64,000 nt of DNA from an uncultured Chloroflexia bacterium (GTDB taxonomy: Bacteria > Chloroflexota > Limnocylindria > Limnocylindrales > CSP1-4). Position 1 is the first letter of the stretch, and every line of letters starts with the position of its first letter. The position numbers and the translations under genes were made by a program. The stretch is taken from positions 569,782 through 633,781 of the forward strand of contig CAWEAL010000003.1 of the NCBI GenBank assembly GCA_963807035.1, in the 5' to 3' direction. The notes beneath the pieces were generated by a model. That model made no database searches. It had not been told where the DNA came from and saw only the letters and a program-made list of their open reading frames with translations. Shown in pieces: positions 51,916-54,420 of this stretch.

Positions 51916-53289
51916 TCAGACCGGCGGGAACAGTTCGTCGAGGGCCGCCGCAAAGGCAACCGTGTGGGCGTCGACGTCAGCCTCGGTCGTGGCCGGGCTC
52001 ATCAGGGCCATGTTGTGGAACGGGGTCATCAGCACCCGCCGGTTCATCACGTAGAGGTGCAGGAAGCGCTCGAGATCGGGGTCGCTGGCCGCCCACTGCG
52101 CGGCGCCGTCGCGCGGCGGCTCGGGCAGGAAGTGGTACTCGGCCCGGCAGCCGAGGCGGGTGACGTGCCAAGGCACGCTCCGGGCGTGGATCGCGCCGGC
52201 CACGCCGGCGGTCCAGCGCTCGGCCAGCGGGATCATCCGCGCGAAGGCGGCCTCGGTCAGGACCTCGCCCAGGGTCGCCCGCACGGCGGCCAGCGAGAGC
52301 GCGTAGCCGGCAAGGGTCCCGCCGACCCCTCCGACGTCCGAGTTGTCGATCTCGAGCATCGCGTTGATCCGGTCGCCGAGCTCCTGGCTGAAGCCGTACG
52401 TTCCGACCGGGATCCCGCCGCCGATCGTCTTGCCGATGACCAGGATGTCCGGCTCGAGGCCGAAGGCCCGGGTGTAGCCGCCGGGACCGGCGCAGATCGT
52501 GTGGGTCTCGTCGATGATCAGGAGGGTGCCGTAGCGGCGGGTCAGCTCCCGGACGCCGTCGAGGTAGCCCGGCTCGGGCAGGACGATCCCGATGTTGGTC
52601 AGGGCCGGCTCGATCAGCAGGACGGCCACGTCCCGGTGGGCGAGGGCGGCCTCGAGGGCGGCCAGGTCGTTGTAGGGGACGACCCGGGTGGTGACCGACG
52701 GGTCGACCGGCGGGCCGATGTTGCCCTCCCGCTCGACGACCCGCCCGTCCGGGGCGAGGGTCGCGATCGTCTCGTCGACCGAGCCGTGGTAGCAGAAATC
52801 GTGGACGGCGATCTTCGGCCGGCCGGTGACCATCCGGGCCAGCCGGATCGCGAACCGGTTCGCGTCGGTGGCGGTCAGGGTGAACTGCCAGTACTTCAGG
52901 CCGAACCGGCGCTGGAGCTCCTCGCCGCACCACACCGCATCCTCGGTCGGCAGCATGTGGGTGATCCCCCGGCCGTGGATCTGGCGCTCGACGGCGGCGA
53001 CGGTCGGCGGCGCGCCGTGGCCGGCCATCGCCCCGGTGTCGCCCAGGCAGAAGTCGATATAGTCGTGGCCGTCGACGTCACGGAAATGGGCGCCGGAGGC
53101 GGTCTCCACGAAGAGCGGGAAGCCACCCGCCCACTTGACCATCCAGTTCATCGGCACGCCGGCGAGGAGCGAGCCGGTGGCCCGCTGGAACAGGGCGAAC
53201 GAGCGCGGGTTGTCCTCCCGGAACTGGCGGATCTCGCGATCCATCAGCGCCTGGAGCCGGCCGCGGTCGAGGACCCGGGGTTCGGTCAC
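51916..53289 (-). CDS. Class III PLP aminotransferase (GSA-aminomutase-like)
   Basis: GVPMNWM, DVDGHDYIDF, YHGSVD, IEP, IIDETHT, GKTIGGG, GGTLAG. Confidence 0.9.
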   Translation of the reverse strand: MTEPRVLDRGRLQALMDREIRQFREDNPRSFALFQRATGSLLAGVPMNWMVKWAGGFPLFVETASGAHFRDVDGHDYIDFCLGDTGAMAGHGAPPTVAAVERQIHGRGITHMLPTEDAVWCGEELQRRFGLKYWQFTLTATDANRFAIRLARMVTGRPKIAVHDFCYHGSVDETIATLAPDGRVVEREGNIGPPVDPSVTTRVVPYNDLAALEAALAHRDVAVLLIEPALTNIGIVLPEPGYLDGVRELTRRYGTLLIIDETHTICAGPGGYTRAFGLEPDILVIGKTIGGGIPVGTYGFSQELGDRINAMLEIDNSDVGGVGGTLAGYALSLAAVRATLGEVLTEAAFARMIPLAERWTAGVAGAIHARSVPWHVTRLGCRAEYHFLPEPPRDGAAQWAASDPDLERFLHLYVMNRRVLMTPFHNMALMSPATTEADVDAHTVAFAAALDELFPPV

Positions 53290-53336
53290 CCGGTCATCAT
53301 GCCCGGTCGGGGCGTGTCCCGGTGGGCTGTTCCCGG

Positions 53337-53525
53337 TTAGTTGATCCGGCGATTCAGGCCGCAGATCGGGCAGGTGGCCACGCCGGTCGACGCATCGAGC
53401 CGGAGGAGTGTGGCGCAGCCGTTGGTGGAGCAGAAGAGGGGGTGGGCGGCGGCGGCGCGCCGGCGCAGCCGGCGCATTGCCTGAGCGCGCATCGGCGCGG
53501 CGGCAGTTGAGGAACGGGTGAGCAT
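53337..53525 (-). CDS. Small basic protein with a C-terminal Cys4 zinc-ribbon-like motif
   Basis: MLTRSSTAAAPMRAQAMRRLRRRAAAAHPLFCSTNGC...TCPICGLNRRIN (62 aa); AGGA 9 nt upstream of the ATG; own promoter-like signals. Confidence 0.65.
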   Translation of the reverse strand: MLTRSSTAAAPMRAQAMRRLRRRAAAAHPLFCSTNGCATLLRLDASTGVATCPICGLNRRIN

Positions 53526-53576
53526 CGAGTAACTGATCCTGGTTGTTCTGACCGCTCGAACGAACCCGGGATAGGT

Positions 53577-53669
53577 GGGTCGGAGCGGACCTGGTTGAGT
53601 GCCAGGCGCGTCGCGGGAGCAAAGGTTCTGATGCTCTGACCTGCGACGCCGCTCTGGCGTTGACCCGAC
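53577..53669 (-). ncRNA. Candidate structured leader RNA (family not recognised)
   Basis: Complementary segments 53583-88/53649-54, 53590-94/53602-06 and 53608-14/53643-49, plus crossing pairs 53617-21/53632-36 and 53623-26/53639-42. Confidence 0.5.
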
Positions 53670-53670
53670 T

Positions 53671-53699
53671 AGGATCGCCCGGAACACCCGTTCTGTCAA
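53671..53699 (-). promoter_or_regulatory. Sigma70-type promoter with a LexA (SOS) box in the spacer
   Basis: Minus strand TTGACA-N17-GATCCT; GAAC-ACCC-GTTC at 53682-53693. Confidence 0.7.
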
Positions 53700-53723
53700 A
53701 CGGCCGATGGTCCGGGGTGACGA

Positions 53724-54263
53724 TCACCCGGCGCGGTGGTACCGCTCCATCAGGCGGGTCACGGCCAGGCGGGCGGCCCGCCAGTCTTCCTGGTCGGCCA
53801 GGATGTCCACCTCGGCGGTGCCCCACCGGGCGAGCTGGCTGATCGCCGTCACGACCGCATCATGGAGGAACTGGCGGCCCCGTCCGGCATCGATCACGCC
53901 GGTCACGAGGTAGCGCCGGACGAGCTCGAATGGCGCCCAGCCGTCGCCGACCCGGATCCGGTCGCCGACCCGGAGGGTTTCGAGCCATTCATCGTCCCCG
54001 ACCGGGTATCGCTCGTGCTCGACCAGGTGGTCGGCGATCGGCAGGCGCCGGGCCGGGCCACCGGGCGACGGCAGCAGGCCGTCGTCATCCGCGGTCCGAT
54101 AGCAGACCGGGCACGACGGCAGGCGGGCTTCGGCCGATGGCGCACTGCCGTACGGGATCCCGCACCGCCGGCAGTAGGCCACGGACCGATTGGGCTGGCC
54201 CGCGCCGCACTGGCGGCAGCTCAGGATGGGCGCGCCGGGGGCGGGTCGGGTCAGGCCGAGCAT
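53724..54263 (-). CDS. Hypothetical protein with multiple CxxC motifs
   Basis: CRQC, CRRC, CPVC and HLVEH, then a helical C-terminal domain. Confidence 0.7.
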   Translation of the reverse strand: MLGLTRPAPGAPILSCRQCGAGQPNRSVAYCRRCGIPYGSAPSAEARLPSCPVCYRTADDDGLLPSPGGPARRLPIADHLVEHERYPVGDDEWLETLRVGDRIRVGDGWAPFELVRRYLVTGVIDAGRGRQFLHDAVVTAISQLARWGTAEVDILADQEDWRAARLAVTRLMERYHRAG

Positions 54264-54420
54264 CGCTGGCCGGGGTGGGAATCTGGCACCCACCAATGAT
54301 CGCCGGTCGGTTCCCGCTTGCGAAGACCGCCGGGCGCTCCGTTGGTCCGGGGCGGCTTCGCCGTTCGTCCGGAATGGTGCCCGAGGGCACCGGCGACCGG
54401 GCCTTGGCCAAGCCCGGAGA

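Follow-up and report, generated by a model that had tools for sequence, protein, structure and literature searches.

A candidate LexA-controlled gene for a small zinc-ribbon protein, with a conserved structured leader RNA, in uncultured Limnocylindria (Chloroflexota)

Operators of the GAAC-N4-GTTC class are used by LexA of Dehalococcoides as well as by LexA of Firmicutes and Actinobacteria. TisB (with IstR-1) and DinQ (with AgrB) of E. coli, small products of LexA-controlled genes with a long structured 5′ untranslated region (UTR), are hydrophobic inner-membrane peptides with an antisense RNA partner. Arginine-rich peptides of the lambda N-boxB and Tat-TAR systems target bulged or looped RNA hairpins, ribosomal-protein leaders are autoregulatory, and LysW, found next to a LysJ-type class-III transaminase, is a small (~55-60 aa), acidic zinc-ribbon carrier that needs its C-terminal Glu-rich tail. 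The history of the GAAC-N4-GTTC motif in B. subtilis and M. tuberculosis (Firmicutes and Actinobacteria) is treated in PMC3323433. The locus described here resembles each of these systems in some traits. It lies in a 64,000-nt stretch (the window, i.e. the whole stretch of DNA analysed) of an uncultured soil Chloroflexia bacterium (GTDB: Chloroflexota; Limnocylindria; Limnocylindrales; CSP1-4; assembly GCA_963807035.1, contig CAWEAL010000003.1, positions 569,782 to 633,781) and comprises, on the minus strand, a predicted promoter with a LexA-type box in its spacer, a leader of about 139 nt and an open reading frame (ORF) for a 62-aa, Arg-rich Cys4 protein. This kind of element, an SOS-regulated small gene with a structured UTR, is already known; its product and its leader match nothing catalogued. 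Judged by sequence comparison, the conserved feature is a new small-protein family together with a new leader RNA, both apparently under LexA in this genus.

The −35 hexamer TTGACA (53694-53699, minus strand), read directly from the sequence and conserved family-wide, is invariant within the genus alignment. It is followed by a 17-nt spacer (53693-53677) and the −10 hexamer GATCCT (53671-53676, minus strand; nAnnnT). The first 12 nt of the spacer, directly after the −35 hexamer, form a perfect palindrome, GAAC-GGGT-GTTC (53682-53693; GAACGGGTGTTC on the minus strand, 53693-53682, and GAACACCCGTTC in the plus-strand reading), which is a putative LexA operator placed so as to occlude the conserved promoter. 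An earlier note, made from the sequence of the window alone, had reported hexamers, spacer and box, and all are where it put them. A promoter/terminator scanner (simple sigma-70) returned zero sites on either strand between 52800 and 54300, and was silent at TTGACA-17-GATCCT because GATCCT fails its −10 rule. The promoter is assigned instead because TTGAC(A/G), a 17/18-nt spacer and nAnnnT are conserved in 143 of the 150 distinct loci whose upstream DNA is long enough. Across the family the −10 element, set 17 or 18 nt from the −35 element, keeps its second-position A and its sixth-position T, and the promoter lies 170-250 nt upstream of the start codon; in the window ~145 nt separate the −10 element from the ATG at 53525.

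By itself, without comparison, the box is not evidence of a LexA site. The bare GAAC-N4-GTTC pattern occurs once in the window against 0.43 expected (35 of 100 shuffles contain at least one) and 40 times in the whole genome (3.06 Mb, 71% GC) against ~21 by a base-composition estimate. Since a single box is uninformative, its significance is drawn from comparison across promoters: position in the spacer, the same layout at the lexA promoter and conservation of the arms within the genus place it beyond chance. A perfect box directly follows the −35 hexamer in 23 of 24 genus-level promoters, with a single mismatch in the remaining one (L013). N4 takes at least seven different forms among these promoters, and in the 23 the arms are 90-100% conserved, N4 50-85% and the remaining spacer 50-70%; conserved arms around a variable N4 are what selection on a site bound by a dimer leaves behind.

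The lexA promoter of this genome reads TTGACA-ATCGAACGTCCGTTCTG-TACCGT, followed by a short leader and a Shine-Dalgarno (SD) sequence, with its box between −35 and −10 in the same layout as at the small-gene promoter (TTGACAATCGAACGTCCGTTCTGTACCGT). The LexA_DNA_bind match, with the box in its promoter spacer, is on contig C8, and four other Limnocylindria genomes show the same arrangement. GAAC-N4-GTTC as the box type of LexA in the Limnocylindria lineage is supported by these promoter sequences, as the earlier note had expected for lexA; its parallel expectation for recA failed, as described below. Other boxes of the genome lie outside the window. At C3:258103 and C3:261406 (L194:1604 and 4907) there are boxes ACAGAAC-N4-GTTCGATCAT, one box of this extended form (ACAGAAC-N4-GTTCGAT) preceding a RecA-like (imuA-type) gene and the other lying where a 1358-aa DnaE2-type polymerase begins; from its sequence, the imuA-type/dnaE2 pair with its boxes looks like a LexA-controlled mutagenesis cassette. 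Two further LexA-type boxes, 33 nt apart (C8:46080 and C8:46113; L193:1581 and 1614), sit between a dinB-like (IMS_C) gene and a 129-aa ORF without a Pfam match.

Around the promoter, the upstream context is variable even inside the genus and conservation starts ~25 nt before the −35 hexamer. A semi-conserved block, (A)CC(A/T)TCGG(N)C(G) (53700-53722, minus strand), immediately 5′ of the −35 hexamer, is shared by the clades although the gene context further upstream differs between them; it could be an UP-like element or an activator site. In the C-terminally extended clade (L109, L112, L165, L169, L176, L178, L185) the leader is kept and the promoter is different, TCGAAC-N4-GCGC-TACACT, with a half LexA box beside a TAnnnT −10 element. 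A longer, 120-aa frame that starts from the TTG of the −35 element is also present in the window, and is regarded as non-coding because leader indels among relatives are not multiples of three.

The ORF (53337-53525, minus strand; ATG at 53525, TAA at 53339-53337, 62 codons) encodes a product with 10 Arg, no Lys, 1 Asp and 4 Cys (C-x4-C ... C-P-I-C), a net charge of about +9, a longest hydrophobic run of six residues and no transmembrane (TM) segment. Homologs, which the earlier note had proposed to look for, are found in 15/15 genomes of the genus (85-97% identity) and in 7/9 other genomes of the family, each from another genus (~50% identity); in small-genome relatives of the order matches are doubtful, and present in 3/16 only. 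Scans of collections gave 263 relatives among metagenome contigs and 211 among species genomes, almost all of them labelled Chloroflexota/Limnocylindria; out of 1.84 billion representatives, a profile search returned no more than 98 clusters at E <= 0.001. Residues M1, R18, R19, R21, R22, C32, T34, N35, G36, C37, C52, I54, C55 and R59 are invariant across the 22 aligned members, and the C-terminal residue varies (N, S, H, D, G). AlphaFold2 predicts an Arg-rich helix (about residues 9-27) and three short strands, with a mean predicted local distance difference test (pLDDT) score of 73 that rises to 82-86 in the ribbon (residues 31-60). The invariant C32, C37, C52 and C55, together with the modelled strands, correspond to a predicted zinc-ribbon fold in which the four Cys would bind zinc. 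Neither Pfam nor NCBIfam has a family above cut-off for the small protein, nor Pfam for any of the 22 members, and in the protein atlas only hypothetical Chloroflexota clusters were matched. By its pattern of conservation the ORF is a genuine gene; its product, a small, basic zinc-ribbon protein, belongs to an undescribed family almost confined to Limnocylindria. An identity as a ribosomal protein L32-like protein was dropped for want of Pfam support, and that of a LysW-like carrier was rejected on the basic charge and the variable C-terminus. One genome of the genus (G004) has two copies of the module on different contigs (L010, L031), with 90-94% protein identity to that of the window; the second copy is possibly a duplication or the product of a mixed bin (bin contamination 3%).

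Transcription is predicted, from the −10 element and the onset of conservation, to start at about 53664, giving a leader of ~139 nt (53526-53664, minus strand). Domain 1, a long hairpin (53601-53658, minus strand) obtained by minimum free energy (MFE) folding, a covariance model and cognate pairing, contains the near-invariant segments AGGUCAGAGC (53642-53633) and GCUCCCGCG (53620-53612), a bulged A and a UCA bulge; a 3-nt bulge between G-C pairs is conserved, and the terminal loop varies from about 10 to 45 nt between clades. Domain 2 (53552-53588, minus strand; fold and covariance model) is the hairpin CCGCUC-CGACC...GGUUCG-UUC-GAGCGG. It is followed by an SD-like AGGA (53537-53540, minus strand) that is unpaired in the predicted fold, and an A/G-rich block precedes the ATG in every clade. 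Within the genus the two domains have a mean column identity of 0.927 (67/112 columns invariant), compared with 0.807 (14/63) for third positions of the coding sequence. The leader of the window folds at −56 kcal/mol (z = −2.83), with 3/200 shuffles folding as well.

The covariance model (R1) was built on a seed of 37 diverse leaders with a structure written by hand, because RNAalifold on plain MAFFT alignments gave an empty consensus. R1 matched 58/100 loci at E <= 0.01, with one match per locus, always the leader. In the resulting alignment 85.9% of cells are paired versus 80.1% in shuffles (reached by 0/500), 16/29 pairs vary on both sides and slid controls pair at 37-46%, figures that are inflated because the alignment is fitted to our own hand-written structure. 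In this alignment domain 1 corresponds to helices 1-4, and domain 2 to helices 5 and 6, with pairing of 96.8% and 90.3%; the inner stem of the latter domain shows exchanges of GC for AU in 17 rows and of CG for UA in 19-20 rows, and its outermost pair of CG for GC in four rows. An alignment-free check of the domain 1 flanks, with anchors that are imprecise in some rows, gave −17.2 kcal/mol for cognate and −14.6 kcal/mol for non-cognate pairing (Mann-Whitney p = 2e-6), and clade-wise RNAalifold runs recovered partial structures. A second model (R2), applied to the other 50 loci, gave six matches at E <= 0.01 and 15 at E <= 0.1, the weak ones being unreliable singly because seven at E 0.1-1 were off-target. 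The leader thus appears, from its compensatory changes, to be a conserved two-hairpin structured RNA, in line with the long structured leader that the earlier note had read from a single sequence.

By model search there is one copy of the leader in this genome, and across loci it always abuts the small ORF. Rfam 15 had no leader match in the window at E up to 10 (chance-level matches elsewhere only) and none at E up to 0.5 when five loci from other clades were scanned. R1 had no match in 150 other genomes of the phylum, a blank that is uninformative because two genomes of the same family in which the gene is present (G021, G024) escaped the model as well. Together with the Pfam and NCBIfam searches and with the literature searched, where no description of this gene or leader RNA was found (supplements were outside the search), these results bear out the earlier description of the locus as undescribed. 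The longer leaders of other clades have an extra third hairpin just 5′ of the SD sequence, and the terminal loops of domain 2 and of this third hairpin repeat CCAUCAC or CCAAUCC (e.g. L083, L092, L064, L045).

Taken together, these features are read here, with moderate confidence, as a LexA-repressed gene for a small nucleic-acid-binding protein whose leader is probably its own feedback site. The sigma-70-type promoter (TTGACA-17-GATCCT) with the operator in its spacer would drive one transcription unit. In this genus LexA bound to the spacer would block RNA polymerase, and DNA damage, through RecA-stimulated self-cleavage of LexA, would release the promoter. The transcript, beginning near 53664 with its two-hairpin leader, would then direct synthesis of the strongly basic protein, in which helix and zinc ribbon may bind nucleic acid; the bulged hairpins of its own leader would be the binding site, and binding there could feed back on translation or on the stability of the mRNA, much as arginine-rich peptides act on bulged RNA hairpins or as ribosomal-protein leaders do. 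This last step, argued by analogy, is the weakest link of the proposal. It was suggested by the invariant RR-x-RR helix, the G-C-flanked 3-nt bulge, the strict linkage of leader and ORF and one sub-threshold match to Pfam N_peptide (lambda N arginine-rich peptide; E = 0.0027). A bolder version, in which the Arg-rich zinc-ribbon protein and the two bulged leader hairpins form a class-wide autoregulatory RNA-protein pair of a kind not seen before, in Limnocylindria, that was independently wired to LexA in several lineages, is rather unlikely; if true, it would represent a new kind of soluble SOS effector, acting on RNA or the translation apparatus and not on DNA repair or the membrane.

Several observations weigh against the proposal of a LexA-repressed protein that regulates its own leader. 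The SD sequence is free in the predicted fold, and neither a terminator nor an SD-sequestering helix was seen in the scan of 52800-54300 or in the leader fold. The covariation figures carry the inflation noted above, and RNAalifold on plain MAFFT alignments found no consensus for either the 101 leaders or the 37-row seed. Foldseek matched the protein to generic zinc ribbons only, at E no better than 0.13, and the N_peptide match, below cut-off, occurs in 1/22 members. Upstream of recA (L201:1690-2040) there is no perfect GAAC-N4-GTTC, with half-sites only (e.g. TCGAACGGACGGCC). The lexA gene itself, outside the window, extends over at least three reading frames (contig C8, L193:4183-5072); recA, likewise outside the window, is split over two (contig C6, L201: about 2040-2830). 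As both genes are affected, the broken frames are probably assembly indel errors and not pseudogenes; the assembly is 68% complete with 0.38% contamination and has frame breaks, and such errors make ORF-based gene calls in this genome unreliable. Outside the genus, a perfect box at the same promoter position was found in 14/119 promoters. Most of the family is therefore without the box, and the basic role of the gene need not involve DNA damage.

The co-conservation of box and ORF postulated in the earlier note is thus seen within the genus but not across the family. On a quick tree of the neighbouring transaminase (60 rows; 41/101 representatives omitted, with no full-length match or no called promoter), the presence of the box requires five or more changes, of which well-supported branches force four, so that several lineages gained or kept it separately. 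In four genomes with a box-less module, lexA retains TTGACATCGAACGnCCGTTC(G/T)GTATCAT, in which GAAC-N4-GTTC is kept; the LexA motif has therefore not drifted there and those promoters are simply unboxed. Box-less promoters have other palindromes at the same spacer position, e.g. GGATCGCCGATCT or GGAATC-N4/5-ATTTC (clade B: L083, L092, L148, L158, L182; clade C: L076, L087, L111, L174), which suggests that different repressors act on the same promoter in different lineages. From these comparisons, promoter, leader and ORF form a class-wide unit far older than the LexA box, and LexA control, in all likelihood real here, is a lineage-specific layer, added or kept in some lineages including this genus. 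The idea of an SOS module put forward in the earlier note accordingly needs qualification: the box is of the lineage's LexA type, but as an add-on to an older unit.

On the downstream side, 50 nt after the small ORF, starts a gene for a PRK07046-type class-III transaminase (51916-53286, minus strand; NF005453, E = 2.8e-195), whose position does not imply membership of the same unit. Across loci the gap between ORF and transaminase has a median of about 110 nt and often contains a GC-rich hairpin. A conserved CATGAT/CATCAT is found ~6-7 nt before the GTG/ATG start of the transaminase, in the gap of the window (53287-53336, minus strand) and in relatives, and many loci have a −10-like CATCAT or GATCAT near this start; the hexamer may be the −10 element of a leaderless transaminase mRNA. 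Upstream of the module, the product of a gene at 53724-54400 (minus strand) has CxxC motifs in pairs (CRQCG...CRRCG...CPVC) and falls into no Pfam or NCBIfam family; the presence of this gene here is conserved in the genus only.

Of the other ways to read the locus, the one closest to the transaminase takes the leader as a metabolite-sensing riboswitch or another cis-regulator of the transaminase operon, with the small protein as an accessory of that pathway and the box as a secondary addition. In 95/109 loci with at least 1500 nt of downstream sequence the transaminase follows on the same strand, and it is better conserved (70-75% identity) than the small protein (~50%); a leader in which unpaired nucleotides are conserved, stems covary and the terminal loop varies would suit such a role. 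However, leader and ORF stay together in the remaining 14/109 loci, which are without the transaminase, and in loci where other DNA is inserted before it (L177, L138); the gap hairpin and the −10-like hexamer suggest that the transaminase has its own signals; and the architecture, two bulged hairpins with no expression platform seen (terminator or SD-sequestering helix), is not that of a multi-stem junction. Regulation of the transaminase by the leader is accordingly considered improbable. Little credence is likewise given to a leader without any regulatory role of its own, serving as a 5′ stabilising structure or a separate small RNA, with the protein acting, for example, on DNA, RNA polymerase or the ribosome. 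The free SD sequence, the stable, GC-rich hairpins and the weak fold matches, which include ribosomal-protein and polymerase-subunit zinc ribbons of similar size, all agree with this, but conservation of the bulge and of the loop-flanking segments (AGGUCAGAGC, GCUCCCGCG, CCGCUCCGG) far exceeds what stem stability would need, and the leader is a single genomic copy always fused to the small ORF.

By analogy with TisB and DinQ, the earlier note pointed to a toxin or checkpoint factor of the cell cycle that the SOS response induces and the long leader restrains. The LexA box in the promoter, the small product with its long structured 5′ UTR and the gain or retention of the box in separate lineages all fit, yet the protein offers no hydrophobic or TM stretch (10 Arg, 1 Asp, hydrophobic run <=6 residues, charge about +9), no conserved antisense promoter or partner RNA was noticed (the scanner found none in 52800-54300), and retention of the gene in most of the class under a strong, box-less promoter would be odd for a toxin. 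Nor does it resemble an SOS division inhibitor of the SulA, YneA, SidA or ChiZ type, having neither a Pfam or NCBIfam match nor a TM segment; to our knowledge, the SOS division inhibitors known apart from SulA are membrane proteins. The gene is also not a lexA-adjacent inhibitor, because lexA is on another contig. The toxin analogy does not fit, and a toxin or checkpoint role is considered very unlikely. It is similarly very hard to believe that the GAAC-N4-GTTC sequence is a chance palindrome or the site of another regulator and not a working LexA site. A window would hold a site by chance in about one case in three, base composition accounts for roughly half of the 40 sites in the genome, the right arm is followed here by C and at other sites by T or G, and other clades have different palindromes at the same place. 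Chance or another regulator would, however, leave unexplained the conserved arms around a variable N4 in 23/24 genus-level promoters, a placement identical to that in the lexA promoter and the recurrence of the box at the same promoter position in separate clades. Repression by LexA of a nucleic-acid-binding protein that acts on its own leader is thus retained as the preferred reading.

Limnocylindria are abundant, uncultured Chloroflexota of soil and freshwater with almost no experimentally known regulation. For this class the locus shows clearly how a LexA operator is laid out, and it adds a new orphan protein family, small and basic with a zinc ribbon, as well as a new, covariation-supported structured 5′ leader RNA that is in no catalogue. 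With a LexA box that comes and goes on a promoter constant in other respects, it also illustrates cleanly how a regulon is rewired in nature. Should the protein bind the leader, the two would constitute a compact new RNA-protein recognition module; if it does not, the leader would still be a candidate cis-regulatory RNA needing a ligand or partner.

Compared with the systems described at the outset, the arrangement resembles LysW and LysJ in gene order, in that a small zinc-ribbon protein adjoins a class-III aminotransferase; in contrast to the acidic LysW with its conserved C-terminal Glu tail, the protein here is basic with a variable C-terminus, and the transaminase matches PRK07046, not LysJ. 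Only the LexA box, the small ORF and the long structured 5′ UTR are shared with TisB/IstR-1 and DinQ/AgrB: instead of a hydrophobic membrane peptide, the model of the product, predicted to be soluble, is a basic helix plus a zinc ribbon with four Cys as likely zinc ligands, the leader predates LexA control, and no partner RNA was found by the scanner (52800-54300) or in Rfam. With lambda N-boxB and Tat-TAR the locus has in common a predicted Arg-rich helix with an invariant RR-x-RR and a predicted bulged hairpin in its own mRNA; there is no homology and no antitermination context here, and those peptides have no zinc ribbon. The core palindrome is the same as in the GAAC-N4-GTTC LexA regulons of Firmicutes, Actinobacteria and Dehalococcoides. 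Here the operator lies between −35 and −10, as at the organism's own lexA, the imuA-like and dnaE2 genes share the box, the regulated product matches no described SOS function, the box is patchy across orthologs and recA is without a perfect one. The operator itself, on the evidence of its sequence, is an ordinary member of the GAAC-N4-GTTC LexA class.

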